42,600 bases of DNA from Candidatus Binatia bacterium (GTDB taxonomy: Bacteria; Desulfobacterota; Binatia; UBA1149; CAITLU01). The notes beneath the pieces are model-generated. The model was not told where the DNA came from and did no database searches. It saw only the letters and a program-made list of their open reading frames with translations. Below, piece after piece: positions 772-42,600 of this stretch; within the stretch, counting starts at the first letter, position 1, and each line of letters opens with the position of its first letter. The position numbers and the translations under genes are program-made. The stretch spans positions 1 through 42,600 of the forward strand of contig JBHEOD010000012.1 of assembly GCA_046261745.1 (NCBI GenBank), written 5' to 3'.

Positions 772-3114
<2,343 letters not shown>

Positions 3115-3888
3115 CTATTTACCGCGAAAGGTGGGTTCGCGCTTCTCGAGAAAGGCCGCGATGGCTTCGCGCGTGTCCTTCGACGCGACGTTGACCGACT
3201 GGGCCATGGCTTCCGCGTCGAGGGCTTCGCTGAGCGTCACGGAGAACGCATTGGTGAGCATGCGCTTGCTCATTGCGAGCGCCAGCGGCGGACCGGCGGC
3301 GAGGCGCCTCGCCCAGTCGTCCACGAACGCATCGAGTTGGGCATGCGCGACGACGCGATTGACGAGTCCGATGCGCTCGGCCTCCGTCGCGTCGATGATG
3401 TCGGCGAGCAGCGCGAGCTCCTTCGCCTTGTGCAGTCCGATCAGGCGCGGCAGCAGCCACGAGCCGCCGAGGTCAAGACTGAGGCCGCGCTTCGCAAAGA
3501 TCTCCGCGAAGCGCGCGCGGTCGGATGCGACGATGAGGTCACAGCCGAGAGCGATGTTGAGGCCGGCGCCGGCAGCCACGCCGTTCACCTTCGCGATGAC
3601 GGGCTTCGGGATGGCGTGGAGCGCCAGGCCCACGCGGTTGAAGTGGTGCATGCGCTGGAGCTGGTGACGGTCGGCTTCGGCCTCGCCCGCGAGGTCGGCA
3701 CCGCTCGAGAACGCATCGCCGGCGCCGGTCAGTACCAGCACGCGGTCGGCGGTGCTCTCGCCGACTTCCGCGAAGACCTCGAGCAGCTCGTCCCACATAC
3801 GCGCGTTGATCGCGTTCTTCTTCGCGGGACGGTTGAGCGTGACGGTGACGATGCCGTCTTCGCGGCGCTCGACGATCAGGGTGTCCAA
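3115..3888 (-). CDS. Enoyl-CoA hydratase/isomerase (crotonase) family protein
   Basis: 257 aa. Has 'VLVLTGAGDAFSSGADL' and 'KPVIAKVNGVAAGAGLNIALGCDL'. GAGGAG lies 6 nt before the ATG. Its stop abuts the copA start with 0 nt between them. Confidence 0.9.
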   Translation of the reverse strand: MDTLIVERREDGIVTVTLNRPAKKNAINARMWDELLEVFAEVGESTADRVLVLTGAGDAFSSGADLAGEAEADRHQLQRMHHFNRVGLALHAIPKPVIAKVNGVAAGAGLNIALGCDLIVASDRARFAEIFAKRGLSLDLGGSWLLPRLIGLHKAKELALLADIIDATEAERIGLVNRVVAHAQLDAFVDDWARRLAAGPPLALAMSKRMLTNAFSVTLSEALDAEAMAQSVNVASKDTREAIAAFLEKREPTFRGK

Positions 3889-3921
3889 AGTCGTGCTCCT
3901 CGGCGAGGGGTTGGTTGAGTG

Positions 3922-3954
3922 CCTGACGTCCGCCTTGGTAGGGCGGACGTCAGG
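3922..3954 (-). terminator. Perfect 13-bp stem / 7-nt loop hairpin between the FKBP gene and the crotonase gene
   Basis: cctgacgtccgcc-ttggtag-ggcggacgtcagg. It lies downstream of the FKBP stop (4084) and upstream of the crotonase start (3888). No U-tract follows it. Confidence 0.35.
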
Positions 3955-4083
3955 GCTGTCATTGCTCGCGGCGACGTGGCTCGGGCGCGGCGCCGAGGCT
4001 TGCCCCGTTTAGGCTATTCTGATCGTCGCGCTGCGCGCTCCTACTTGGAGGAACTGGTCTCGCTCCTCGCCAGCTCGGAGCTT

Positions 4084-4554
4084 CTAGTTGATCTTGATCA
4101 GCTCGACTTCGAATACGAGGGTGGAGTTGGGCGGGATCTTGCCGCCGGCTCCGCGCTCGCCGTAGGCGAGGTCCGGCGGGATGGTGAACTTGTACTTCGA
4201 GCCGAGCGGCATCAGCTGCACACCCTCGGTCCATCCCGGGATCACGCGGTTGAGAGGGAAGGTGGCCGGCTGGCCGCGATCGACGGAACTGTCGAAGACC
4301 GTGCCGTCCATCAGCGTGCCGTGGTAGTGCACGGTCACGTTGTCGGTGGCCGACGGCTTGGCGCCGCTTCCTTCCTTCAGAACTTCGTATTTCAAGCCGC
4401 TGGCGGTGGTCGTCACCTTTCCGGTCTCCTTGCCGGCCTCGGCGGCCGGCGCGGCTTTGGCAGCCGGTTCGTCCGGCTTGCCGCCTTGGGCGCAGGCCGT
4501 GAGGGTGGATGTGAGGGCGAAGGCGAGGGTTGCCGTCGTCAGAAGGGTCTTCAT
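4084..4554 (-). CDS. FKBP-type peptidyl-prolyl cis-trans isomerase, lipoprotein
   Basis: Start re-picked at [21 protein letters not shown] (signal peptide plus lipobox L-T-A-C). FKBP core: '[18 protein letters not shown]...[16 protein letters not shown]...[23 protein letters not shown]'. Confidence 0.88.
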
Positions 4555-17030: not shown

Positions 17031-17384
17031 GGTCGTGCCGCCGCCTTGGGTGCTGAATTTCAAGGTTGGCCAGCGACCACGAAACCCCGGACTCGTTGCC
17101 GAGCGTCTTGATTCAGACCAGCGCTGTCCGCAGGGATCTCTCCCCACGGCGCGGCGATCGCCGGTCTGTGGTCGGAAGTCGTCCGACGATCGCCTTGACG
17201 CACTCCGTCATCCTAAGGATTTCATGCGGATGTAGTTGTGGACGTAGTGCGAGCGTGGTTGCCGGCGTAGTATGCATGGGCACCGGATCGGCGATGCTTG
17301 CTCCGGTTCTTCCATCGTTTTGACTACGGTTTGCGGAACGGCACATATGCTGCGGATGAAGGGTGAGGTTCGGGAGGGAGAACG

Positions 17385-17954
17385 ATGAGCGATCAGGACA
17401 GCTTCATCGATTTCTATGAGGTGCTGGAGATCAGCAGCAGCGCCCATCCGGACACGGTTGCGCGTGTCTACCGGCTGCTCGCCCAGCGCTTCCACCCGGA
17501 CAACCAGGAAACCGGCGATGCCGAGCGCTTCACCGCCATCCTGCAGGCCTACAAGGTTCTGAGCGATCCGGAACTGCGGGCCCAGTTCGACGTCCACCAC
17601 CAGCAGCAGAAGTCGGTCAAGTGGCGCCTGTTCGATGCCAGGGAGGCATCCGGCGGCATTTCTTCAGACCGCGAAATCCGCTTCGGCGTGCTCAGCCTTC
17701 TCTACAACAAGCGAAGGCGCGACCCTGAGCATCCGGCGATCCCGATGTTCGAGATCGAGAGCCTGCTCGGAATTCCTCGCGAGCATCTCGAGTTCAGTTT
17801 CTGGTTTTTGCGGGAAAAGGGCCTGATCGCGCGCACCGACGGGGGAAGCTGCACGATCACGGCCGCTGGCGTGGAGTACCTGGACAACAACGGACTGCAG
17901 GAGCGCGCGAAGATCGTCGCGGGCCTTCCTGCCGGCGGTCGCGGGCCTCGTTGA
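17385..17954 (+). CDS. J-domain protein (class III) with a winged-helix-like C-terminal domain
   Basis: 'DFYEVLEISSSAHPDTVARVYRLLAQRFHPDNQ...FTAILQAYKVLSDPELRAQFD' carries the HPD motif. There is no G/F or Zn-finger region. The tail reads 'LLGIPREHLEFSFWFLREKGLIARTDGG'. GGGAGGGAG lies before the ATG. Confidence 0.88.
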   Translation: MSDQDSFIDFYEVLEISSSAHPDTVARVYRLLAQRFHPDNQETGDAERFTAILQAYKVLSDPELRAQFDVHHQQQKSVKWRLFDAREASGGISSDREIRFGVLSLLYNKRRRDPEHPAIPMFEIESLLGIPREHLEFSFWFLREKGLIARTDGGSCTITAAGVEYLDNNGLQERAKIVAGLPAGGRGPR

Positions 17955-18050
17955 CGGGACGCGCCAGCTCGGCGCTTGAGTGCGGCCATAGCCGCACGAA
18001 GGGGAGGGAACCGGCTTTGGGGCGCAAAGCCTGAATGCCGGTGAATTGCC

Positions 18051-19922
18051 ATGGCTAAAATTCTCGGCATCGACTTGGGGACGACGAATTCGGTCATGGC
18101 CGTCTGGGACGGTCGCGAGCCCCGGCTGATCGCGAGCCAGCAGGGCAGTCGCCTCACTCCGTCGGTGGTCGCGTTCGGCGCCAACGGCGACGTCTTCGTG
18201 GGCGAGGTCGCGCGCCGCCAAGCCGTGGCCAATGCGCGCTGCACGATCTTTTCCGCCAAGCGTTTCATCGGTCAGTCATTCGACTCCGTCTCCGCGGATC
18301 GCCAGGCCGTGGCGTATGAGATTGCCGAGGGCGACCAGGGCGAGGTCCAGATCGTTGTCGGCGAGCGCCGCTTCTCGCCCGAGCAGATCTCCGCCCACGT
18401 GCTTCGCGAACTCAAGAAATCCGCCGAGGCCTTTCTCGGCGAGCCAGTCGACGGCGCGGTCATCACGGTGCCCGCCTACTTCAACGACGCGCAGCGCACC
18501 GCCACCAAGGAAGCCGGCCGCCTGGCCGGCCTGGACGTCCGCCGCATCATCAACGAGCCTACCGCGGCCGCGCTCGCGTACGGACTCGACAAGAGCAACG
18601 AGAAAGTCGTAGCGGTCTACGACTTTGGCGGCGGCACCTTCGACGTCTCTGTGCTTACGGTCGGCCAGGAGGTCATCGAGGTGATCGCCACCCACGGCGA
18701 CACGCATCTCGGCGGCGACGATATCGACGCACGCATCGTCGCGTGGCTGCTCAAGCACTTCGAAACCAAGACCGGCGTGCACATCAACGGCGACGCCACG
18801 GCCCACCAGCGCCTGCGCGAAGCTGCCGAGTACGCCAAGATCGACCTTTCCACCCGCACCGCCACCGAAATCAACCTTCCGTTCCTTGCCGCCAACGCCA
18901 GTGGGCCGGTTCATCTCGAGGTGGAGCTGTCACGATCCGAACTCGAGGCGATGATCTCGGATCTCGTGGACCGCACGTTGTCCTCCTGCGTGCAGGTTCT
19001 CTCGGATGCCGGCAAGCAGCCGTCCGAGATCGACGAGATTGTTCTCGTCGGAGGCTCTTCGCGAATCCCTCTCGTTCAGCAGCGCGTGGCGGCATACTTC
19101 CACAAGGAGCCCCGGCGCACGGTCAATCCCGACGAGGTCGTCGCGCTGGGCGCGGCCGTCCAGGCCGGTGTCATCAGCGGCGAGGTCAAGGGCCTCGTGT
19201 TGCTCGATGTGACTTCGCTCTCTCTCGGCGTGGAAACCCACGACGGTCTCACGGCCGTCGTCATTCCACGCAACACCACCATTCCCACCGAGGCCATGCG
19301 CACGTTCACTACTGCCACCGACGGGCAGACCAGTGTCGAAGTGCACGTGGTCCAAGGCGAGGCGGAGCAGGGCCGCCTCAACGACTCGCTCGGACGCTTC
19401 GACCTCGACGGCCTCGGCGCGGCTTCGGCCGGCACGCCGCAAATCGACGTCACCTTTGCGATCGACATCAACGGCATGGTCAAGGTGAGCGCGCGCGATC
19501 GCAATACCGGCCGTACGCAGACCGTGTCGGTTTCGGCGCGCACGGCGGTGGCCAGAGAACCGGCTCTCGGGGATGCGCGGGGGGCCGCCACCGATGAGTA
19601 CGAAATGGACCGCAATACGGCCCGCGAGATGGACGGCGATGCGCCCCGCCAGATGGACCGCGAGTTGGTGCAGGACGCGACCCGCGATACCGGATTGCCG
19701 TCGGCTGCCCAGGCGGTCCTTCACGACGCCGAGCAGATCCTCGGTCAGCACGGCAAGGCGCTCGCCGGCATCGAGCGTACCAGCATCGAGCAAACCGTCG
19801 AGCAACTGCGCGAGATGCTCGACGGACACGCCTCGTTGTCCGAAGTGGATCGATCGCGGACAGCACTGCGCGAAATGCTCAACCGTGCGAAAGAGTCGTT
19901 GCTCGCGCGCATCGTTCGATGA
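18051..19922 (+). CDS. Hsp70-family chaperone (DnaK paralogue-like) with a divergent C-terminal lid
   Basis: 623 aa. Motifs 'GIDLGTTNS', 'VPAYFNDAQRTATKEAGRLAGL', 'DFGGGTFDVS', 'LVGGSSRIP', and the linker 'LLDVTSLSLG'. Confidence 0.93.
   Translation: MAKILGIDLGTTNSVMAVWDGREPRLIASQQGSRLTPSVVAFGANGDVFVGEVARRQAVANARCTIFSAKRFIGQSFDSVSADRQAVAYEIAEGDQGEVQIVVGERRFSPEQISAHVLRELKKSAEAFLGEPVDGAVITVPAYFNDAQRTATKEAGRLAGLDVRRIINEPTAAALAYGLDKSNEKVVAVYDFGGGTFDVSVLTVGQEVIEVIATHGDTHLGGDDIDARIVAWLLKHFETKTGVHINGDATAHQRLREAAEYAKIDLSTRTATEINLPFLAANASGPVHLEVELSRSELEAMISDLVDRTLSSCVQVLSDAGKQPSEIDEIVLVGGSSRIPLVQQRVAAYFHKEPRRTVNPDEVVALGAAVQAGVISGEVKGLVLLDVTSLSLGVETHDGLTAVVIPRNTTIPTEAMRTFTTATDGQTSVEVHVVQGEAEQGRLNDSLGRFDLDGLGAASAGTPQIDVTFAIDINGMVKVSARDRNTGRTQTVSVSARTAVAREPALGDARGAATDEYEMDRNTAREMDGDAPRQMDRELVQDATRDTGLPSAAQAVLHDAEQILGQHGKALAGIERTSIEQTVEQLREMLDGHASLSEVDRSRTALREMLNRAKESLLARIVR
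19602..19673 (+). repeat. Degenerate 3 x 24-nt in-frame tandem repeat inside the Hsp70 SBD-lid linker
   Basis: gaaatggaccgcaatacggcccgc / gagatggacggcgatgcgccccgc / cagatggaccgcgagttggtgcag. Copies 1 and 2 match at 19/24 positions. The repeat encodes EMDRNTAR-EMDGDAPR-QMDRELVQ. Confidence 0.45.
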
Positions 19923-21196
19923 TCCGACACAAGATGCTGCGCCCGCTTCTCGTGGCCGCACTGGCCGCGGCATGGGTGGGGACGGCCTCGGCAGCGCCGC
20001 AGTCGATCGCAATTCCCGCCTACTTTTATCCGGTCTTTCCCGATCCGCTCTGGGCGCAGATGGAAGAGTCGGTGCCGACGGTTTCGTTCGCGGTGATGAA
20101 CCCCGCCAGCGGCGCGGGCGCTGCTCCGGACGCGAACTACACCAGCCAGATCGCGGCGACGCGGGCAGCGGGCGTGAAGATCATCGGCTACGTGACTTCG
20201 AGCTACGCCACGCAGACGCTGGCGGCAGTCAAGGCCGAGATCGACAACTACTACGCCTGGTACGACGTGGACGGCATCTTCATCGACGAAGCGGACAATA
20301 ACTGCGTGACGCAGCCGTACTATTCCGAGCTCGACGCGTACACGAAGGCCAAGGGCGGCCTCGGCCTGACGGTGATCAATCCCGGCACCACGACGCCGGA
20401 GTGCTTCGCCACGGCCGCGGACGTGATCCTGAATTTCGAAGGCTCGTACATGCAGTACCAGTCCTGGGCTCCTCTGGGATGGGAGGCGGGGTACGACGCG
20501 AGCCGCTTTTGGCACCTGGTGTACGCCACCGACGAGGCCGACATGCCCATGGCCGTGCTGATGAGCCAGGCTCGGGGCGCAGGCTACGTGTACGTCACTC
20601 CCGACATGCTGATTCCGAATCCGTGGGACTCCCTGCCCGGCCCGTCCTACTGGGCCACCGAACTCGCGTACGTGCAGCCGATCGACGGAGCTTGCCCGGC
20701 GCCCATCACCAAGCCCAAGCTACAGGTGCGAGGCCTCGACACTCCGGGCGACGACGATTCGATGAAGTTCGCCGGACGGTTCACGCTGGCGGGCACACCC
20801 GCGGTCGATCCGGTGGCCGACGGGCTGCGCGTGGTGATCGGTGACAGCGGCGGCTCCGCCGCCGACGTGACGATTGCGCCGGGCGTGTACGCGGGCGAGT
20901 CCGGCTGGATCGTCGGGAACAATCGCTGGGTCTACCGCGACGACAGCGAGACTCCGGCCGACGGCATCACCAAGGTGATGCTCAAGAGGAAAGCAGGCGA
21001 CGCGTCCGCGCACTTCACGTTCCGTGTGACCGCGCCCGAAGGCGCGTTCGCGGTGAGCGCGGCCGAGCTGCCGCTCACGGGAGTCTTGCTGCTGGCGCCT
21101 GCCCAGCCGACCACGAACTGCGCGACCGCGACGTTTCCCGGTCCCAAGCCGACCTGCGTCGTCACCGGCGGCGGCAGCGGCATCCGTTGCCGGTAG
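19919..21196 (+). CDS. Secreted spherulation-specific family 4 (spherulin-4 / GH135-like) protein with an unassigned Cys-containing C-terminal domain
   Basis: Signal peptide MIRHKMLRPLLVAALAAAWVGTASA|A. 'IPAYFYP....W', 'AVMNPASG', 'GYVTSSY', 'VDGIFIDEA' and 'INPGT' are typical of the family. The ATG overlaps the Hsp70 TGA. Confidence 0.8.
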   Translation: MIRHKMLRPLLVAALAAAWVGTASAAPQSIAIPAYFYPVFPDPLWAQMEESVPTVSFAVMNPASGAGAAPDANYTSQIAATRAAGVKIIGYVTSSYATQTLAAVKAEIDNYYAWYDVDGIFIDEADNNCVTQPYYSELDAYTKAKGGLGLTVINPGTTTPECFATAADVILNFEGSYMQYQSWAPLGWEAGYDASRFWHLVYATDEADMPMAVLMSQARGAGYVYVTPDMLIPNPWDSLPGPSYWATELAYVQPIDGACPAPITKPKLQVRGLDTPGDDDSMKFAGRFTLAGTPAVDPVADGLRVVIGDSGGSAADVTIAPGVYAGESGWIVGNNRWVYRDDSETPADGITKVMLKRKAGDASAHFTFRVTAPEGAFAVSAAELPLTGVLLLAPAQPTTNCATATFPGPKPTCVVTGGGSGIRCR

Positions 21197-28449: not shown

Positions 28450-29550
28450 CTACCGTCGACGGACGACGAGGACATCAGTGGGCGGTCCACCGGTATCGAG
28501 AGCCGTCGGCGTGAGCTTCTCGTCCGTCTCGACGCCGAACACGTGCACGCCGTGCGCATCGAAGGAGCCGTCGGGAACGAACAGCAGCCCAGGGAGAGCG
28601 TCGAAGCCGAACTCCGGCACGGCATAGTCCACCGAGACATGGATGTTCGCGTTCTCGGCCACGCCGGTATCGAGCCCGAAGCGGTCGAGGTGCGACGAAA
28701 GCGTGAGGTCGGTGGTGAACACCAGGTAACCCCGGTTCTCGTTCAACAGCACGAAGGGGCCCAGATCCGCGCCGGTCAGGCCGTCGTCCTCGCGGACCAC
28801 CAAGCCGCGTGTCGCGAACATGTCGAGGTCGATCTCCTCGATCCCGCCGGCATCGAAGGAAGTGCCCGTGGCCGACACGAACAGGCGAGACGTGCCGGCC
28901 AGGATCTGCATGCGGTGCTTGGGCGCGGTGCCGTCCAGCTTGATGGCCTGTACGCCGGGTTCCAAAGGATCCACGTCGACGAGCGTAAGCGTCGGGAGAT
29001 CGACGACGGCGAGGTAGGAGGGGCTCGCGAGACCGCCGGGCGCTTCTTCGTTTGCGCGTCGCACCTGCACGAGCAGCCGCGTGCCGACACGAATCATTCG
29101 GCCGAGGTCGGGGTTCCCGTCGTCGTCGGCGAAAACACTGAGGTCGACGGCGTTGACGAAAGTGCCCGTCATCGGATCGAAGCGCAGAAGGTGCGGAGAC
29201 TGGCCCGTGGTCACAAAAGCAAGGTCGCGTCCGAGCACGACGATGTCCTGGGGCTGGCTCGCCGCGCCAAGCGAGAACGTGCGGCGCACTGCCCACGCAC
29301 GACGGGCGATCACGCTGACGGTGCCCTGGCGGCGACTGACCACGAAGAGGCGGTTGCCGCGTGCGTGAAGGACGGAATCGGCGCCGATTTCGAGGGCCGG
29401 CTTGCGAAGGCTCCACGGCGGCTTGGTCCTGAAGCTGCGGACGGTGGCGCCGGAGTCGCCGTGGTTGGCCGCCACGAACAGTTGCGCGGCCCCGGTGGGC
29501 GTGGCGAGGACGAGAAGCAGCAAGGCGAGCGGAATCCTGGAATGACGCAT
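28450..29550 (-). CDS. Secreted hypothetical protein, probable beta-propeller-like repeat fold
   Basis: Start re-picked at MRHSRIPLALLLLVLATPTGAAQ (signal peptide), with GGAGGA 8 nt upstream. Recurrent beta-strand-rich segments ('LFVVSRRQGTVSVI', 'LAFVTTGQSPHLLRFD', 'YLAVVDL', 'RLFVSATG', 'GYLVFTTD'). No family was recognised. Confidence 0.7.
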   Translation of the reverse strand: MRHSRIPLALLLLVLATPTGAAQLFVAANHGDSGATVRSFRTKPPWSLRKPALEIGADSVLHARGNRLFVVSRRQGTVSVIARRAWAVRRTFSLGAASQPQDIVVLGRDLAFVTTGQSPHLLRFDPMTGTFVNAVDLSVFADDDGNPDLGRMIRVGTRLLVQVRRANEEAPGGLASPSYLAVVDLPTLTLVDVDPLEPGVQAIKLDGTAPKHRMQILAGTSRLFVSATGTSFDAGGIEEIDLDMFATRGLVVREDDGLTGADLGPFVLLNENRGYLVFTTDLTLSSHLDRFGLDTGVAENANIHVSVDYAVPEFGFDALPGLLFVPDGSFDAHGVHVFGVETDEKLTPTALDTGGPPTDVLVVRRR

Positions 29551-29718
29551 CGGGCTTGTCCTCCTCGCCGGGGTCCTCGCCATCGACGCTAGTCCCCGTT
29601 GCTGCTGCCGGCAAGCGGAGGCCGGCCGTGAACAAAGCGCGGGCGCGTTCAGCACATCCCCGTCATTGCCCTGATGCCGAGGTTGCCGCACCCTCCGGCG
29701 TCCCCAAGGAGCACGACG

Positions 29719-30171
29719 GTGACCAGCGACGAACGAAATCTCATCGAGAAACTGCGGCGCATCGAGGCACTGTTCTCGCGTCCCGGTACGGAGGGGGAGC
29801 GGGATGCGGCCTCGCGTGCGCGCGATCGCATCCTCGAACGGCTGCGCCAGACGACTCCACACGCCTCGAATCACACCTCGGCTCCCGAGGAGCCGGCCAT
29901 CGAGTACCGCTTCTCGCTCGCCGACCCGTGGTCGCAGCGTTTGCTTCACGCACTGCTTCGCCACCACGGCATCGCCACCTACCGCCGCCGCGGCCAGCGC
30001 CGCAACACGATCACCGCACGCGTGACGCGTCGTTTCGTTGACGAAGTGTTGTGGCCGCAGTTTCGGGAGTTCGAACGCGAACTGCGCGAGTATTTCGATC
30101 GCTGCACGGAGCGCATCATCGCGCAGGCTCTCGGTGCCGCAACGAACGCGCGGGGAAGCGCAAGCCGCTAA
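29719..30171 (+). CDS. Hypothetical protein with a DUF2786-like N-terminal helix
   Basis: GTG start 7 nt after AAGGAG. 'LIEKLRRIEALFSRPGTEGERDAASRARDRILERL'; the remainder is Arg-rich and helical. Confidence 0.6.
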   Translation: MTSDERNLIEKLRRIEALFSRPGTEGERDAASRARDRILERLRQTTPHASNHTSAPEEPAIEYRFSLADPWSQRLLHALLRHHGIATYRRRGQRRNTITARVTRRFVDEVLWPQFREFERELREYFDRCTERIIAQALGAATNARGSASR

Positions 30172-30211
30172 GCGGCATCCCGGCAGCGAGATCCATCGAG
30201 GCCTTCCCGGG

Positions 30212-31171
30212 CTATCTGGACGCCTTTCGAGACGTACGCGCCGGCGCCTTGGGTTCGCGCCATTCGTCGTACCCCCGCAGCAACGTGCGCGCGAGTTCGC
30301 GCATCTCCGCGGCGCGTGACGACCCGCGGCGCCACACCAGTCCGAGCGAGCGGCTCGGCGGCGGCGCCTTGAACGGCCTCACCATCAGGCTCGAACCGTT
30401 GCCGGCAAGCGCGGGGACGGCGATCTCCGGCAGCAGCGTCACACCGTCGCCGCCTGCCACCATTTGCGCGAGCGTTGCGAGGCTGGTGGCACGGAAGTCC
30501 GCGTTTTCGTCGGCGCCGGCGCGATCGCAGACGGCCAGCGCCTGGTCGCGAAGGCAATGACCGTCCTCGAGCAGCAGCACGCGTTCGCCTTCGAGATCGC
30601 TCTCGACCACCTGCTTCCTCTTCGTGAGCCGGTGATTCGCCGGCATTGCCAGCAGGAATGCATCGTCGAACATCGGCGCTGATTCCACTTCGCTGAGGCT
30701 GCTGTCGATGGCGAGCAGTGCCGCGTCCACCTTTCCCTTGGCGATCAGCGCGATCAGCACCTCGGTCTTCTCCTCGCGCAGCATCAGCCGCAGCTCGGGA
30801 TACTCGCGACGCACGGACGGCAACGAAGCCGGCAGCAGGTACGGCGCGATGGTGGGAATGACTCCGAGGCGGAACGACCCGACCAAGGGACGCGAACGCC
30901 CGCGTGCAACTTCGACAAGCTCGCGCGCTGAAGAAAGCAGCGCGCGAGCGCGTCCCACGATCTCCTCGCCGGCAGGTGTGACGATCGCGCCGCGCCGGTC
31001 GCGATCGAAGATGCGAACCCCGAGCAGGAGCTCGACTTCGCGAATCTGGGTACTGAGCCCCGGTTGCGACACGTGGCAGAAGGCGGCCGCGCCACCGAAG
31101 GTGGCCTCGTCCGCAACGGCGACGATGTACTCGAGCTGGCGCAGGGTAGGCAGGGGAGCGGGGGCGGACAT
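30212..31171 (-). CDS. oxyR: LysR-family hydrogen-peroxide-sensing regulator OxyR
   Basis: 319 aa. wHTH 'FGGAAAFCHVSQPGLSTQIREVE'. The redox pair context 'LLLEDGHCLRDQALAVC' is present. Confidence 0.9.
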   Translation of the reverse strand: MSAPAPLPTLRQLEYIVAVADEATFGGAAAFCHVSQPGLSTQIREVELLLGVRIFDRDRRGAIVTPAGEEIVGRARALLSSARELVEVARGRSRPLVGSFRLGVIPTIAPYLLPASLPSVRREYPELRLMLREEKTEVLIALIAKGKVDAALLAIDSSLSEVESAPMFDDAFLLAMPANHRLTKRKQVVESDLEGERVLLLEDGHCLRDQALAVCDRAGADENADFRATSLATLAQMVAGGDGVTLLPEIAVPALAGNGSSLMVRPFKAPPPSRSLGLVWRRGSSRAAEMRELARTLLRGYDEWREPKAPARTSRKASR

Positions 31172-36869: not shown

Positions 36870-38099
36870 CTACCGATGCTGCGCCGCAGGCCAGTTCGTC
36901 CGGTTCTCCCATCTTTCCTCGAGCTGCGGTAGCAGCACCACCCCCTCTGGGACGAGGCTGCTCGCGAGCATCACGCTGTTGATGTCCTGATGATGGCGCC
37001 AACTGTTGGTTTGCCGGTGGAAGGGCTCGAGCCAGAACGACAGGATGCCGGACCCGAGGGCTGTGTACGGGCGCAGCGCCTCCAAGGCGTTCGCGAACTT
37101 CGCGCTGCCGGTAAAACGCAGGCGGTCCGCCTGAACCTCGCCGGCAACCAGCGACACCGCCGAAAGACCGATGGCGAGGCCGAGTTCCCGGAAGGCGAGG
37201 CGTTGCGTCGCGCTCTTGCGCGAGTCGAAGCGCTTCGAGTAATGCGCCAGTCCCTGCTGGGCCGCCGTGAGCAGCGCGTTCATCAGCGGCTCACCGTCAA
37301 AATTTTCGGCATCGCCCAGCTGGGCGATCAGCGCGGTGTGCGTGAGCAAGCCCCCGATTCCGAGCGGGTCGGCGGTGGCAAGGTCGCCTCGTTCGATCAT
37401 GCGGGCGAAGTCGGCTGTCTGTCTGCGCAGGTTGGGACCGTCCGCGATCGTTCCCAACTGAGAAGCCGTGTTCTGCAGCTGGAGGCAGGTGAGAAAGCCG
37501 TCCAGGGGATCGTGGCGGCCCATGGAAGCAACGAGCGGTCGGGACAGGTCGATGCTCATCTTCCAGTGCATGCGCCGTGCGCCTCGCGAGTGCAGTCCAT
37601 GCACGAAGCTGCGGTGGGCCACGACGGCAAGCTCTCGCGCCCACGTATTGAAATGCGGCCGGTGCGTCGCGCGCGCCACCTGGTCGAGAGCGTGCATCCA
37701 CTTCGTCAGATAGTGGAAGTACTGGCCGTCGCGCTGCCATTCGAGCTCGTCGCTCGACGCCTCGTCGGCAGGCCGTTCCGGCAGGCTCTTGCCGATGCGC
37801 AGCCCGCCCAAGGTGGGATGACGCTCTCCCTCTTTATCGCCCAGTTCGCTCAGCCATCCCGTGCGCAGATCGCCCGGCCGATGCCTTCCCAGTTCGTGGT
37901 GGACCCCCTCGACGAGCCGAAGCGCACGCTCGATATGCGGTCCGTGCGCCGTCCGTCTCGCGAGGGCGAGATAATTGCAGACCGCGAACGCGTCCGTCCA
38001 GAGATAACGCCGTGATGGCGCGTGACCAGGCGGATCGAAGCTGCTCGCGAAATCCTCCATCAGGGTGGCGGCTGTGGTCGTAGTGTGATCGATCAGCAT
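36870..38099 (-). CDS. Conserved-looking hypothetical protein, mostly helical
   Basis: 409 aa from MLIDHTT. Segments 'YLWTDAFAVCNYL', 'QRDGQYFHYLTKWMHAL' and 'DPLGIGGLL' are loosely reminiscent of (alpha/alpha)6-barrel proteins. No firm family. Confidence 0.65.
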   Translation of the reverse strand: MLIDHTTTTAATLMEDFASSFDPPGHAPSRRYLWTDAFAVCNYLALARRTAHGPHIERALRLVEGVHHELGRHRPGDLRTGWLSELGDKEGERHPTLGGLRIGKSLPERPADEASSDELEWQRDGQYFHYLTKWMHALDQVARATHRPHFNTWARELAVVAHRSFVHGLHSRGARRMHWKMSIDLSRPLVASMGRHDPLDGFLTCLQLQNTASQLGTIADGPNLRRQTADFARMIERGDLATADPLGIGGLLTHTALIAQLGDAENFDGEPLMNALLTAAQQGLAHYSKRFDSRKSATQRLAFRELGLAIGLSAVSLVAGEVQADRLRFTGSAKFANALEALRPYTALGSGILSFWLEPFHRQTNSWRHHQDINSVMLASSLVPEGVVLLPQLEERWENRTNWPAAQHR

Positions 38100-38230
38100 C
38101 GCGGGCCTTCTCATCCTCACAAGGATCCGGTAGCACGACACAGGCCAGACCCGCTGTAGGCCAGTTCACTTCGGTTCGGCTTTTGCATGATTCGCCGTGG
38201 ACCGGGCGACGCCAGCAAGTAGGAGTTGCC

Positions 38231-38965
38231 ATGCTCATCGACGAACGCACCCGGATGGTGGAGACGCAGCTTGCGGATCGCGGCATCGCGGATCCGCGCG
38301 TGCTCGAGGTTTTTCGGCAGGTTCCGCGCGAACTCTTCCTGCCGCCGGAGCTGGCCGAGTTGGCCTATCGCGACACGGCGCTGCCGATCCGGGAAGGGCA
38401 GACGATCTCGCAGCCGTACATCGTGGCGATGACCGCTGAGGCCCTCGAACTCACCGGTGACGAATCCATTCTCGAAATCGGGACAGGCTCGGGCTACGCC
38501 GCTGCCATTCTCAGCCGGCTTTGCCGGGAGGTCTTCACGGTCGAACGCCGCGCAAGGCTGGCCCTCGAGGCGCGCGAGCGACTGGAGCGTCTCGGCTACG
38601 ACAACGTGCACGTGCTTTGCGGCGACGGCACGCTCGGCTGGCCTGAGCACGCGCCTTACGACGCGATCGCCGTTGCGGCCGGCGGCCCCGCGACGCCCAA
38701 GGCGCTGCTTGCGCAATTGTCGCTCGGCGGACGACTGGTCATTCCGGTCGGTCCGGAGCATTCGCAGGTGCTCCTGCGAGTGACACGCACCGGCGACGAA
38801 AAGTTCGTCGAGGAATGCCTTGGAGAAGTTCGCTTCGTGCCGCTCATCGGCGAGCAGGGATGGGCAGACGAAACCGCGATCATGCACGCGGCAAAAACCG
38901 CCGGCACGAGGAACGCGCACTCAGGCGGCGGCGCCGACCTCAGGCAGAATCGATCACCACGATAG
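38231..38965 (+). CDS. pcm: Protein-L-isoaspartate O-methyltransferase
   Basis: AGGAG lies before the ATG. 'TISQPYIVA', 'LEIGTGSGYAAA', 'GDG..GWPE.APYDAI', 'LVIPVG'. Confidence 0.92.
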   Translation: MLIDERTRMVETQLADRGIADPRVLEVFRQVPRELFLPPELAELAYRDTALPIREGQTISQPYIVAMTAEALELTGDESILEIGTGSGYAAAILSRLCREVFTVERRARLALEARERLERLGYDNVHVLCGDGTLGWPEHAPYDAIAVAAGGPATPKALLAQLSLGGRLVIPVGPEHSQVLLRVTRTGDEKFVEECLGEVRFVPLIGEQGWADETAIMHAAKTAGTRNAHSGGGADLRQNRSPR

Positions 38966-40466
38966 ACGGCTGCGACTGCACATAGTCGAGGGCATAGGCG
39001 AGTTCGCCCGGAGTCTGCGCGTGCAGCGTAAAGAGCGGCTGGCCGATATCGACTGCGTCGCCCAGTCGCACGTCAACGGTCGCGCCGGCGGCGGCGTCCT
39101 GCGGTGCGCCGGCCAGCTTGGCGGCGCGCGCGAGCAGTCGGTTGTCGATCGCGCCCACGCGACCGGTGGCGGCAGCAAGCACCGGCTGCGTGTACGGCGC
39201 GGTGGGCGGCTCACGCAGGCCGCCTTGGGCTTCTCGGATCGCATCGAACTTGGCCAGCGCGAGTCCGCTGTCGAGAGTACGCGTGGCCAGCACGACTCCG
39301 GTACCGGCGGGGGTACGTCCTGCCATTTCGAGAATCCGGCCGGCCAGCAACAGCGAGCGATCGCGAAGGTCTTGCGGCGCGCCGGCGCTGCGGCCGAGCA
39401 CGGCCATCACGTCCATCGCTTCGAGCGCCGGGCCGATACCGCGGCCGACCGGCTGGCGTCCGTCGGTTTCGATTACCTGCACGTGCAGGCCGAGGGCTTC
39501 GCCTACGCTCGTCAGGCTGCCGGCCAGCAACTTGGCCGCCGCGCGACTGCGGAGCTTCGCGGTGGGACCGATCGGCATGTCGATCAGCACGCGCTCGGAG
39601 CCGGCGGCGATCTTCTTCGAAAGTACGGAGGCCACCAGTTGGGCCTCGCTGTCGAGGTCGAGGGGACGCTCGACGCGGATCAGCACATCGTCGGCGGGGC
39701 TCAGCCGCGCGCTCGCGCCCCATGCAATGCAGCCGCCTTCACGTTCGACCACGCGCCGCATCGCGGCCAGGTCGAGCGCCACCGGCGCAAGCGTCTCCAT
39801 CGTGTCGGCTGTTCCTGACGGCGACGTGATCGCGCGCGACGAAGTCTTGGGGATGACCACGCCGCAGGCGGCGACGATGGCGACGATGATCGGAGTGGTG
39901 CGGTTGCCCGGCAGGCCGCCGATGCAGTGCTTGTCCACGACCGGCGAGGTGCCCCACGCGATGCGATCGCCCACGTCGAGCATCGCGCGCGTCAGCGACA
40001 CGGTCTCTGCGTGCGTGAGGCGCCCGCCCGCGCAGGCCGTCACGAAGGCAGCCAGGTGCAGGTCGGAAACGCGGCCGTGGCTGATGTCGTCGATCAGTGC
40101 GCGCATGGACGGATAGTCGAGCTCGCGGCCGTAGACTTTCGCGCGAAGGAACCGCAGCGAGTCGAGCGGCGAGGCGTGGTGGACGGTGACTTCCTCGCCG
40201 TTCTCAAGGGCCAGCAGCGTCCAGGCCGCTTCGGACAGGGCGATCTCGTCGTGGTGCAGCCATTCGGCATCCACTCGATGGAGGATCGCGGGGATTCGGC
40301 GGCCGTCCGCGACCACCTCCACCTCGACCTGAGCCTGGGCCTCGAAGCCCTCGGCGCGGCATACCGCACTGTCGCTGCGCAGATAGACGACCGATTGCTG
40401 GTACGTGTCGATGCACGCCCGCAACACGCGAAGCCGGCCCGGCGCCGGTTGCAGGTCAGGCGGCAT
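38940..40466 (-). CDS. Thymidine-phosphorylase-family protein of the archaeal AMP-phosphorylase-like type (with an extra N-terminal domain)
   Basis: 508 aa from MPPDLQP. 'VVDKHCIGGLPGNRTTPI', 'TSSRAITSPSGTADTME', plus an extension of about 80 aa ahead of the alpha-helical domain. Confidence 0.88.
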   Translation of the reverse strand: MPPDLQPAPGRLRVLRACIDTYQQSVVYLRSDSAVCRAEGFEAQAQVEVEVVADGRRIPAILHRVDAEWLHHDEIALSEAAWTLLALENGEEVTVHHASPLDSLRFLRAKVYGRELDYPSMRALIDDISHGRVSDLHLAAFVTACAGGRLTHAETVSLTRAMLDVGDRIAWGTSPVVDKHCIGGLPGNRTTPIIVAIVAACGVVIPKTSSRAITSPSGTADTMETLAPVALDLAAMRRVVEREGGCIAWGASARLSPADDVLIRVERPLDLDSEAQLVASVLSKKIAAGSERVLIDMPIGPTAKLRSRAAAKLLAGSLTSVGEALGLHVQVIETDGRQPVGRGIGPALEAMDVMAVLGRSAGAPQDLRDRSLLLAGRILEMAGRTPAGTGVVLATRTLDSGLALAKFDAIREAQGGLREPPTAPYTQPVLAAATGRVGAIDNRLLARAAKLAGAPQDAAAGATVDVRLGDAVDIGQPLFTLHAQTPGELAYALDYVQSQPSIVVIDSA

Positions 40467-41820
40467 CGAGATCGACCACGTCGCGGTACTCCGGAACGGT
40501 GCATGGCCAGCCGTGCCGCTCCTCGATGGCCTGGCGCAGCGAATCGGCGGCGACAGGCTCGCCGTGCGTGACGAAGACGCGCTGCGGCGGCGACGGCAGC
40601 GAACCGATCCACGCCAGCAGCTCGTTGCGATCGGCATGCGCCGACAGCGCGTCGAGCCTCGCGACTTCAGCGCGGACGGCCACGTGGCTGCCGTGGATCT
40701 TCACCGTGGCGGCGCCGCCGGCCATCGCGGCGCCGCGCGTGCCGGCGGCCTGGTAGCCGACGAACAGGATCGTGTTGCGCTCGTCCGGTGCGAGCGCCTT
40801 CAGGTGGTGAAGCACGCGGCCGCCCGAGGCCATGCCGCTTGCCGACACGATCACCGCAGGTGTGTGTACCGCGTTGAGCTGCTTGGATTGTTCGACGCTG
40901 GTTACGATGGTGGCCGACGTGCCCAACGCCGTGCACTGCTCGGCGCTCAGGCGGTGTTCGTCGCAATGCGCCTGGTAGATGCGCGTGGCATCGGCCGCCA
41001 TCGGGCTGTTGAGGTAGGCCGGCAGGTCCGGAATGCGGCGCTGCTCCTTGAGCAGGTGAATGCAGTACAGCAGCGTCTGGGCTCGGCCGATTGCGAAGGA
41101 CGGAATCAGCACAACGCCGCCGCGCGCTGCCGTGCGATTGATGACGGCGGCAAGGACCGTCAAAGGATCCTTGTCGCTGCGCACGCGATCGCCGTAGGTG
41201 GATTCGAGGACGACCCAGTCGGACGGCTCCGGCGCAGCTGGCGGGTTCATCAGCAGGTCCTCGGAGGAGCCGAGGTCGCCGGAGAACAGCAACGAATGGT
41301 TGTCCCATTCGACGCGTACGCTGGCCGCGCCGAGCAGGTGTCCGGCGCGGCGAAGCTGCACTCGCAGTCCGGCGACCGGCTCGAAGGCGCTGTCGAAGTC
41401 GTGAGGCTCGAAATGCTCGAGCGCCGCGCGCGCGTCGTTCTCTGTGTACAGCGGCAAAGCCGGGCGATGTTTGGAGAAGCCGTGCCGATTGGCGTAGTCG
41501 GCCTCCTCTTCGAGCAGGTGTCCCGAGTCGGGCAGCAGAAGGCCGCACAGGTCCCGCGTCGCCGCACTGCAATGCACGCGGCCGCGGAAGCCGAGGCGCA
41601 CGAGGCGCGGGATGAACCCGCTGTGATCGAGATGCGCGTGAGAGAGAATGATCGCATCGAGATCCGACGGCCGCATGGGGAAGTCGTCCCAGTTACGCAG
41701 CCGGAGCTGCTTGAGTCCCTGGAACAGGCCGCAGTCCACCAGCACCCGCCGGCCTTCGTGCTCGAGCAGGTACTTCGAACCGGTCACGGTGCCGGTGCCA
41801 CCAAGAAAGCTGAGTTGCAT
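40456..41820 (-). CDS. Metallo-beta-lactamase-fold beta-CASP family nuclease (RNA-metabolising MBL)
   Basis: 454 aa, with AAGGAG 8 nt upstream. 'LVDCG', 'SHAHLDHSG', 'GHLLGAA', 'ESTYG', 'LSAHAD', 'VFVTHGE'. Confidence 0.9.
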   Translation of the reverse strand: MQLSFLGGTGTVTGSKYLLEHEGRRVLVDCGLFQGLKQLRLRNWDDFPMRPSDLDAIILSHAHLDHSGFIPRLVRLGFRGRVHCSAATRDLCGLLLPDSGHLLEEEADYANRHGFSKHRPALPLYTENDARAALEHFEPHDFDSAFEPVAGLRVQLRRAGHLLGAASVRVEWDNHSLLFSGDLGSSEDLLMNPPAAPEPSDWVVLESTYGDRVRSDKDPLTVLAAVINRTAARGGVVLIPSFAIGRAQTLLYCIHLLKEQRRIPDLPAYLNSPMAADATRIYQAHCDEHRLSAEQCTALGTSATIVTSVEQSKQLNAVHTPAVIVSASGMASGGRVLHHLKALAPDERNTILFVGYQAAGTRGAAMAGGAATVKIHGSHVAVRAEVARLDALSAHADRNELLAWIGSLPSPPQRVFVTHGEPVAADSLRQAIEERHGWPCTVPEYRDVVDLDAA

Positions 41821-41873
41821 TTGCGTCGTTCTCCTTTGCTACGAACGTGAAACCCTTGCCGGCGCGTTGCGCG

Positions 41874-42600
41874 TCACGCGGGCTCCTTCGGCGGTCGCGC
41901 ATCGGCTTGCAGCTGGGCCGCGTGCCAGGAAAGCGGCGCCAGTCGCAGTCGCCCGTCGACGGCAATCGCGCCGCTGCCCGGCGTCAGCACCTTGACGGGA
42001 TTGAGGTCGAGCTCGACGAGTTCCGGCAGCGCTTCGACCAGCGCCGACACGCGCTGGATGAGGCCGACCAGGGCCGCGCGATCGCCGGGCGGGGCGCCTC
42101 GGTAACCGGCCAGCAACGCGCTCGACCTCAGCTTCGCGAGCATCTCCTCCGCATCGACGTCGCTGACCGGGACGAGGTGGAATGCAACGTCCTTGAGCAG
42201 CTCCACCAGCACGCCGCCCATGCCCACGACCACGAGCGGCCCGAAGACGGGATCGACGGTGACGCCGACCAGCGTTTCGATGCCGCCGGCGACTTCGCGC
42301 TGCAGCAGTACGCGTTCGATGACCTGTCCGCGCGCCGCCAGCCGCGACGTCATCGCGGCGACGGCTTGGCGGACGTCATCGGCGGAGTTGAGATGGAGAA
42401 CGACGGCGCCGACGTCGCTCTTGTGAAGGATGGGCGGGTTGGTGACCTTGGCCACGAGCGGATAGCCGAGGCGTTCGGCCGCGGCTGCCGCGGCTTCCGG
42501 TGTCACCTCGACGCTTTCCGCCAGCGCGATGTCGCACGCGCGCAGCATCGCGGCGAGATCTTCCATGCCGAGCCAGACGGGAGCGTCGACGCCATCGAGC
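41874..42600 (-). CDS. ADP-forming acetyl/acyl-CoA synthetase, C-terminal ATP-grasp part (CDS continues beyond the window)
   Basis: 'LGYPLVAKV....ILHKSDVGAVVL', 'VLLQREV.GG.E...GV..DPVFGP', 'DLNPVKV'. The frame stays open upstream of the first Met to base 42600. Confidence 0.8.
   Translation of the reverse strand, partial: LDGVDAPVWLGMEDLAAMLRACDIALAESVEVTPEAAAAAAERLGYPLVAKVTNPPILHKSDVGAVVLHLNSADDVRQAVAAMTSRLAARGQVIERVLLQREVAGGIETLVGVTVDPVFGPLVVVGMGGVLVELLKDVAFHLVPVSDVDAEEMLAKLRSSALLAGYRGAPPGDRAALVGLIQRVSALVEALPELVELDLNPVKVLTPGSGAIAVDGRLRLAPLSWHAAQLQADARPPKEPA

Follow-up and report, generated by a model that had tools for sequence, protein, structure and literature searches.

Whether an acyl-CoA synthetase, a nuclease and a phosphorylase encoded in tandem form a single metabolic unit is the question raised by one edge of a 42,600-nt stretch of contig JBHEOD010000012.1 (assembly GCA_046261745.1), attributed to a Candidatus Binatia bacterium and called the window throughout. 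All three open reading frames (ORFs) lie on the minus strand (Table 1) and encode a predicted ADP-forming acyl-CoA synthetase, a beta-CASP nuclease and a phosphorylase, labelled TP2 as a member of the NF003338/PRK04350 'type-2 thymidine phosphorylase' family. A first-pass annotation had proposed that the three act together, converting RNA to sugar phosphates by the archaeal pentose-bisphosphate route. The reading favoured here, to which we assign a probability of roughly 0.55, is that the window carries a conserved proteobacterial module in which a beta-CASP RNase and an archaeal-type nucleoside monophosphate (NMP) phosphorylase recycle nucleotides towards ribose-1,5-bisphosphate (R15P) and phosphoribosyl pyrophosphate (PRPP). 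The window would hold a minority variant of this module, lacking the usual ribose-phosphate diphosphokinase (Prs) paralogue, with the synthetase as a local neighbour.

The identity of the phosphorylase is central to this reading. TP2 passes the cutoffs of NF003338 (640.3 bits; cutoff 434) and TIGR02645 (553.8 bits; cutoff 434.6), aligning end to end with both models. Its best sequence match in the PDB is the AMP phosphorylase of Thermococcus kodakarensis (4GA5), with 314 bits versus 124 for pyrimidine-nucleoside phosphorylase (PyNP). An AlphaFold model of the protein (pLDDT 78.5) matches 4GA5_A with TM values of 0.82/0.85 over 502 columns, so that the correspondence with the full-length-type archaeal enzyme includes the N-terminal domain; PyNP and thymidine phosphorylase (TP) are matched over about 430 columns. 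In a neighbour-joining tree, 14 bacterial TP2 sequences formed a clade (bootstrap 100) sister to eight archaeal AMP phosphorylases (bootstrap 99), being placed beside and not within the archaeal clade in the sample used, and both clades were set off from PyNP by a long stem. Hidden Markov model scores, PDB match, tree and fold thus agree with the first-pass view of an AMP-phosphorylase-like enzyme, distinct from the DeoA type and endowed with an additional N-terminal domain and characteristic motifs, and the phylogenetic placement which that annotation had called for sets the protein on the archaeal side. As judged from sequence and modelled fold, TP2 resembles an AMP/NMP phosphorylase, its formal place being in the adjoining, uncharacterised type-2 family.

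The predicted active site is likewise close to that of the archaeal enzymes. The two phosphate/ribose-site motifs of TP2, DKHCIGGLPGNRT and PKTSSRAITSPSGTAD, fit the AMP phosphorylase patterns D-x-H-S-x-GG-V-PGN-K-T and PKTSSRAITS-xx-GTAD, and are near-identical to their archaeal counterparts. Only five group-specific invariant differences, all conservative, separate bacterial TP2 from archaeal AMP phosphorylases. Within the motifs, TP2 departs from the archaeal enzymes in a conservative way everywhere but at residue 181 (window positions 39926-39924), where the phosphate-site Ser found in the D-x-H-S element of both AMP phosphorylase and PyNP is replaced by Cys, as in 13 of the 14 bacterial sequences sampled. 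In an enzyme induced at low oxygen, Cys181 may serve as a redox-sensitive residue. NMP phosphorylases convert AMP, CMP and UMP to R15P (PMC9700705). The T. kodakarensis enzyme (4GA4-4GA6), which catalyses the first step of the pentose-bisphosphate 'NMP shunt', shares with TP2 the three-domain architecture, N-terminal domain included, and is its top PDB match by fold as well as by sequence. The two differ in that identity amounts to only 35-39%, in the separate and well-supported bacterial clade, in Cys181, and in their partners, which are R15P isomerase and RuBisCO for the archaeal enzymes, whereas TP2 is accompanied by beta-CASP and by Prs or PhnN.

The nuclease gene encodes a protein in which the Lactamase_B, Beta-Casp and RMMBL domains all exceed their Pfam cutoffs. 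The HxHxDH motif (H61-H66) maps to 41640-41623, and the metal-binding or catalytic residues H61, H63, D65, H66, H161, D182, H395 and H419 are invariant in the beta-CASP alignment, in agreement with the original assignment to the beta-CASP nucleases of the metallo-beta-lactamase (MBL) class. Scores fall short of the equivalog models for Cas14 (372.7; cutoff 800) and aCPSF1 (269.6; cutoff 580), which places the predicted protein in a separate, TTHA0252-like subfamily and not among the RNase J, aCPSF1 or Cas14 equivalogs. Its best PDB match is RNase TTHA0252 of Thermus thermophilus (2DKF, 3IEK; 244 bits, 418 of 454 residues aligned), a distant relative which is nevertheless similar in size, free of extra domains and conserved at the catalytic residues. 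TTHA0252 is reported to be a dispensable RNase that acts as a 5'-3' exonuclease (PMC4229858); the same paper describes no link to a phosphorylase or to low oxygen.

Comparison across genomes revealed a recurrent arrangement. One genome per species was scanned, yielding 80 TP2 loci from Alpha-, Beta- and Gammaproteobacteria (52-78% identity), and the neighbouring ORFs were clustered. In 47 of the 74 testable genome loci, a same-strand beta-CASP gene lies directly upstream of TP2; the pairing pointed out in the first-pass annotation is therefore conserved, and more often so than expected by chance. On the other side of TP2, a gene of about 300 aa follows directly in 50 of 73 testable loci, usually with a 4-nt overlap with the TP2 stop. 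Its product is a Prs paralogue, with Pribosyltran_N and Pribosyltran domains, a score of 397 bits against NF005537, the class III enzyme of M. jannaschii as best PDB match, and the RQD motif, K-x-R loop and ribose-5-phosphate (R5P) loop retained. Both sides could be tested in 68 loci: 44 carry beta-CASP and Prs, 12 only Prs, five only beta-CASP, and seven neither. The window belongs to the beta-CASP-only minority, and the slot taken by the Prs-like gene in relatives is occupied by pcm. Eight loci from close relatives (74-78% identity) display beta-CASP-TP2-Prs, beta-CASP-TP2-GNAT or beta-CASP-TP2 alone, the junction between beta-CASP and TP2 being either a 1-4-nt overlap or a 2-nt gap. Universal stress protein (USP) genes stand beside nearly all of these eight, and BON, patatin and GroEL-paralogue genes beside some.

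Other genes recur in the wider surroundings of TP2. Copper and heavy-metal genes are repeatedly found within 10 kb (L002-L081), with a P-type ATPase in 34 loci and CusA, CusB, multicopper oxidase and MerR-regulator genes in addition; the window too has a heavy-metal P-type ATPase gene (772-3114). Phosphoketolase is encoded in 15 TP2 loci, an acetate-kinase-like protein in seven and PPK2 in six (L013-L015, L026-L028 and others). In the Xanthomonadales loci checked, the phosphoketolase and acetate-kinase-like genes lie downstream of beta-CASP-TP2-Prs, and where PPK2 was checked (L018, L023) its gene is found upstream of the operon. In one close relative (L085, 123-2040), genes for a PncA-like isochorismatase and a nicotinate phosphoribosyltransferase, belonging to PRPP-dependent NAD salvage, are located about 5 kb from beta-CASP-TP2. 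In Variovorax paradoxus (L001, 11516-13045), the phosphorylase occurs with neither beta-CASP nor Prs, and the next gene encodes an AAA_33 P-loop protein of 509 aa without an NCBIfam match; Crp/Fnr, USP, BON, NorB, NnrS and ribonucleotide reductase genes surround them.

Gene fusions provide a second, independent line of evidence. Among 1.84 billion cluster representatives searched, six combine an N-terminal PhnN domain (TIGR02322, 160-208 bits; equivalog cutoff 156) with an NF003338 TP2 region (530-617 bits), and a further one joins Prs to TP2 (Table 1). For five of the seven fusion clusters a single contig is on record; those of P0299 and P0333 have been found on several, which supports these two fusions. 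The E. coli PhnN protein, a PRPP-forming R15P phosphokinase, is part of the phosphonate (C-P lyase) operon. It has the same domain as that fused to TP2, which suggests that the same R15P-to-PRPP step takes place in the fusion proteins; in most TP2 operons, a Prs paralogue is found in that position. According to the passage of PMC9700705 that cites Hove-Jensen (2003), PhnN phosphorylates R15P to PRPP. The fusions of PhnN and Prs to TP2 therefore offer Rosetta-stone-type support for a TP2 family that produces R15P to be passed on to PRPP, the PhnN::TP2 proteins in particular supporting R15P as the predicted product. This third partner, a Prs paralogue or, in fusions, PhnN, was missed in the first-pass annotation, and it points to PRPP and not to a RuBisCO-type route. 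One fusion (L169/L170, 6001-8064) lies downstream of genes for a QRPTase-family, PRPP-consuming enzyme and a TRAP transporter, at a distance of 32 nt. TP2 homologues of 910-1017 aa, initially regarded as possibly informative fusions, proved to be intein insertions: P0279 and P0306, and probably P0286, P0325, P0326, P0340 and P0390, contain an intein (Intein_splicing and LAGLIDADG) that interrupts the catalytic a/b domain or sits at its start.

Taken together, these features suggest a sequence of reactions, which we infer as follows. The beta-CASP enzyme would degrade RNA in the 5'-3' direction to 5'-NMPs, as its closest characterised relative leads one to expect. TP2 would phosphorolyse the NMPs to free base and R15P, a step suggested by the near-identity of its active site with that of the Thermococcus enzyme and by the PhnN fusions. 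R15P would then be converted to PRPP by the PhnN domain in the fusion proteins; for most operons, PRPP is presumably the work of the Prs paralogue, starting from either R15P or R5P, while in the case of the window the enzyme taking R15P to PRPP would have to be encoded elsewhere. PRPP and the bases would finally feed salvage phosphoribosyltransferases.

Physiological context comes from Bradyrhizobium diazoefficiens, where bll3117-bll3116-bll3115 are annotated as thymidine phosphorylase family protein, ribose-phosphate pyrophosphokinase and MBL fold metallo-hydrolase (PMC6515984; PMC9104804), the same three annotated families as in the conserved module. The three proteins belong to the 'core microoxic proteome', with log2 changes of 2.1, 4.4 and 2.9, respectively, at 0.5% O2, and their transcripts increase 5.1-, 7.7- and 15.4-fold (PMC6515984). 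The three genes are predicted to constitute an operon, a FixK2 box being located at -74, and deletion of fixK2 lowers bll3117 6.6-fold and bll3115 30.6-fold (PMC9104804). Neither paper gives the operon a function, and a literature search for the beta-CASP/TP2/Prs triad found no further characterisation beyond these two. The order TP-Prs-MBL, which among the loci analysed was found only in L052, differs from the beta-CASP-TP order of the window, and the operon has the Prs gene and the FixK2 box that the window lacks. The low-oxygen lxa locus of Burkholderia cenocepacia, considered as a possible home of the pair, was set aside, the lxa paper mentioning no phosphorylase, metallo-hydrolase or Prs.

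Boxes of the FNR type extend this picture to relatives of the window. A perfect TTGA-N6-TCAA box stands 69-80 nt before the beta-CASP ATG in all five of the closest relatives in which beta-CASP is the first gene, and such a box occurs within 200 nt upstream of beta-CASP in 22 of 135 loci overall, versus 1.7% of random windows. This signal was clear once the scan had been re-anchored on alignment-defined beta-CASP starts; based on longest-ORF starts, enrichment was weak (29% versus 16%, with at most one mismatch). Given that the module lies in FNR/FixK-type low-oxygen regulons of relatives, its likely role would therefore be the cheap recycling of nucleotides, PRPP and ribose from RNA under oxygen or energy limitation. 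The window has a single FNR-type site (4088-4101, TTGATCTTGATCAG, with one mismatch), located upstream of the enoyl-CoA hydratase and heavy-metal P-type ATPase genes (772-4008, minus strand) at a distance of about 80 nt; it is not significant, since one or more matches turned up in 23% of shuffles.

Several observations weigh against the module as proposed. TP2 scores 440.5 bits against the AMP phosphorylase equivalog TIGR03327 (AMP_phos), below its cutoff of 535, in an alignment spanning residues 39-504, and the replacement of the phosphate-site Ser by a near-invariant Cys means that its substrate could differ. Neither a Prs-like gene nor a PhnN gene or domain was found anywhere in the window, and enzymes of the Prs type normally take R5P, not R15P. 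In the reverse test, TP2 was directly downstream in only 11 of 67 metagenomic loci with a closely related beta-CASP (47-75% identity), and 55 of the 67 had no TP2 within the up to 4 kb of sequence available on either side; a strict coupling of beta-CASP to the phosphorylase is weakened by this result. TP2-Prs is in turn found without beta-CASP in the 12 loci mentioned above. Since each partner also occurs without the other, a hand-off from nuclease to phosphorylase is not obligatory. As for regulation, bll3115, a candidate counterpart of beta-CASP, is annotated only as 'MBL fold metallo-hydrolase'. The suggested connection with hypoxia or energy limitation holds for relatives, through the induction of bll3117-3115 and the boxes in five of five, but does not extend to the window, where no FNR-type box occurs within 300 nt upstream of beta-CASP; the 3' end of the synthetase gene sits where the box would be, and the promoter may lie past the window edge. 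Exact-sequence look-ups of the beta-CASP protein of the window and of P0012 matched no contig that would extend the sequence beyond the synthetase.

The same facts bear on an alternative that is unlikely, albeit one to be taken seriously, namely co-regulation in the absence of any metabolic hand-off. Here beta-CASP would be a low-oxygen or stress RNase for mRNA and rRNA turnover and TP2 an independent unit for nucleotide/PRPP salvage, whether or not Prs accompanies it, the two being neighbours by virtue of the same FNR-type regulon. The many beta-CASP loci without TP2 are consistent with this, some of them placing the gene after grpE-dnaK-dnaJ on the same strand, with the phosphorylase absent nearby (about 4001-5340 in L133, L137, L143, L144, L146, L150, L151, L161 and L164), as are the TP2 loci with Prs but no beta-CASP. 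FNR-type boxes precede beta-CASP at similar rates in the presence (9/66) and absence (13/69) of TP2, and disruption of TTHA0252 alters global mRNA levels (PMC4229858). Against it stand the tight or overlapping adjacency in 47 of 74 TP2 loci, spread over three proteobacterial classes and mostly in the order beta-CASP-TP2-Prs, and the fact that the 5'-NMPs released by a 5'-3' exoribonuclease are the very substrates of an NMP phosphorylase.

A biosynthetic module was also considered and appears improbable. TP2 would in that case run in reverse, from base and R15P to NMP, or carry out a TrpD-like, PRPP-dependent phosphoribosyl transfer, with activated ribose supplied by the Prs paralogue or PhnN. 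In vitro, the AMP phosphorylase reaction can run in either direction, TP2 and TrpD have a common fold, and the association with PRPP-forming enzymes (Prs, PhnN) is constant, being extended once to a QRPTase-family enzyme. The phosphate-site motifs, however, are those of a phosphorolytic AMP phosphorylase and not of TrpD, whose models reach only 1e-11 on TP2, and a fused PhnN fits TP2 as a producer of R15P, because PhnN consumes this compound and does not make it.

The arrangement in the window bears on the model of the first-pass annotation, in which synthetase, beta-CASP and phosphorylase form a functional trio and the passage from RNA to sugar phosphates by the archaeal pentose-bisphosphate route is coupled to ATP formation by the synthetase. 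The gene coordinates and strand, the 53-nt spacer with its AAGGAG and the 11-nt overlap that it reported were all confirmed on the sequence. The synthetase frame stays open up to 42599/42600, where the edge of the window cuts the gene, and closes with a TGA at 41876-41874. The fragment matches Pfam ATP-grasp_5 (E=4.9e-61) and aligns with the C-terminal part of the NCBIfam models for NDP-forming CoA ligases of the fused alpha-beta type; it shares this C-terminal domain with ADP-forming acetyl-/acyl-CoA synthetases. Of the CoA-binding, succinyl-CoA-ligase-like and ATP-grasp_5 domains expected of such enzymes, the some 241 residues inside the window comprise only the last. The fragment is not Pat-like, since it ends without a GNAT domain. 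The AAGGAG stands 10 nt ahead of the beta-CASP ATG (41820). Promoter/terminator and FNR-box scans of the 53-nt spacer returned no promoter-like, terminator-like or FNR-type site, and the promoter/terminator scan detected neither a sigma-70-like promoter nor a credible terminator between the operon genes. This absence is compatible with co-transcription of synthetase, beta-CASP and TP2, and in the window the synthetase is probably co-transcribed with the other two; the stop/start overlap is likewise compatible with translational coupling. The phosphorylase start was set at 40466, since homologues, which are 496-512 aa long, cover 98-100% of the 508-aa product; an in-frame ATG at 40637, which would give a 565-aa ORF, lies inside the beta-CASP gene and was rejected.

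Compatibility with co-transcription thus speaks for the trio, as does the frequent proximity of TP2 in other lineages to enzymes yielding ATP at substrate level, namely the phosphoketolase and acetate-kinase-like proteins counted above; phosphoketolase and acetate kinase are likewise FixK2 targets in B. diazoefficiens (PMC9104804). Even so, the trio is distinctly improbable. A synthetase homologue is near TP2 or beta-CASP in only two of about 170 loci (L002 and L086), on the opposite strand and in other arrangements, and none was found in the eight close-relative loci examined. The ADP-forming synthetase is therefore not conserved beside the module: it is a lineage-specific upstream neighbour outside it, and the actual third partner is the Prs paralogue, absent here. 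The downstream part of the trio model gains no support from the loci and ORFs scanned, the RuBisCO signature motif being absent from all ORFs of the 81 loci (+/-10 kb) and no IF-2B or RuBisCO Pfam domain occurring among the window ORFs scanned, while the conserved partners indicate PRPP instead.

Table 1. Features of the module in the window (positions within the 42,600 nt) and TP2 fusion proteins found among cluster representatives.
Feature	Position	Strand	Remarks
ADP-forming acyl-CoA synthetase, 3' end	41874..42600	-	C-terminal ~241 aa, ATP-grasp_5
Synthetase/beta-CASP spacer, 53 nt	41821..41873	-	Shine-Dalgarno AAGGAG at 41836-41831
beta-CASP nuclease, 454 aa	40456..41820	-	Lactamase_B + Beta-Casp + RMMBL
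Phosphorylase/beta-CASP overlap, 11 nt (ATGCCGCCTGA)	40456..40466	-	start ATG 40466, stop TGA 40458-40456
Phosphorylase (TP2), 508 aa	38940..40466	-	NF003338/TIGR02645
TP2 active-site motif DKHCIGGLPGNRT, residues 178-190	39935-39897	-	AMP phosphorylase-like
TP2 active-site motif PKTSSRAITSPSGTAD, residues 206-221	39851-39804	-	AMP phosphorylase-like
TP2/pcm convergent 3'-end overlap, 26 nt	38940..38965	.	pcm = 38183-38965, +
PhnN::TP2 fusions			P0299, P0320, P0274, P0322, P0330, P0333
NF005537 Prs::TP2 fusion			P0254; one representative

An ordinary pyrimidine-nucleoside or thymidine phosphorylase, with DeoA/PyNP function and a decorative N-terminal extension, is what the database names imply, and the Pfam domains of TP2 are the same as those of DeoA. 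This is nonetheless highly improbable: DeoA and PyNP models score only 135-202 bits on TP2, far under their cutoffs, and none of the neighbouring genes seen belongs to a deo operon. PyNP also differs from TP2 at the sites for phosphate, ribose and base: it has DKHSTGGV-GDTTT and AKMSGRGLGHTGGTID in place of the two motifs, and its base-binding Arg aligns with a Glu in TP2, as it does in AMP phosphorylase. An anti-phage defence or toxin-like nuclease system depleting nucleotides is close to negligible as an explanation: nucleases and nucleotide-cleaving phosphorylases do occur in several defence systems and beta-CASP relatives show faint, precomputed Anti-Pycsar_Apyc1 Pfam matches, but PADLOC gave no match for any of the module proteins, the reason for which this reading was rejected, and the module is found among stress and hypoxia genes and not in defence islands, is highly conserved across classes (50-65% identity) and is under FNR/FixK control.

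The genes of the proposed RNase-phosphorylase module come from families that are known but whose function is uncharacterised, and their arrangement is a variation on the archaeal NMP-phosphorylase theme. Should the reading be correct, NMP phosphorolysis to R15P would extend beyond archaea and bacteria of the candidate phyla and be widespread among Alpha-, Beta- and Gammaproteobacteria (Legionella, Pseudomonas, Ralstonia, Achromobacter, Bordetella and rhizobia being examples), wired there to PRPP instead of RuBisCO and turned on by low oxygen. Three families that are very common but carry misleading names ('thymidine phosphorylase family protein', 'MBL fold metallo-hydrolase' and a second 'ribose-phosphate diphosphokinase') would gain a function, a component that keeps recurring in regulons of the FixK/Anr type would be accounted for, and the result would be relevant to the survival of strict aerobes under anoxia. 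A bolder version, possible though on the unlikely side and offered tentatively, is that many aerobic Proteobacteria possess an FNR/FixK-controlled, archaeal-type 'NMP shunt' rewired to PRPP, no enzyme of which has been characterised in bacteria. RNA, for instance that of ribosomes, would be broken down to NMPs and these to bases and R15P. A fused PhnN, or a Prs paralogue with a novel activity on R15P, would then regenerate PRPP at the expense of a single ATP, giving an energy-saving route for nucleotide and NAD upkeep during anoxic persistence.

GC content is about 67%, and best matches are to Ideonella, Rhizobacter, Rubrivivax and Aquabacterium, from which a bacterium of the Burkholderiales would be the probable source of the contig. 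The stress-gene context described in the first-pass annotation is real: pcm, csbD, dps and USP genes are present, together with a peroxiredoxin-glutaredoxin fusion. Two minus-strand ORFs, 36870-38141 (423 aa) and 28450-30378 (642 aa), have coding-type GC content at third codon positions and no Pfam or NCBIfam match; the former lies between csbD and pcm, adjoining the module. On the plus strand, a DnaJ-domain protein, a second Hsp70-family protein and a Spherulin4-family protein are encoded in a row (17367-21196), which looks like a non-canonical chaperone cluster.

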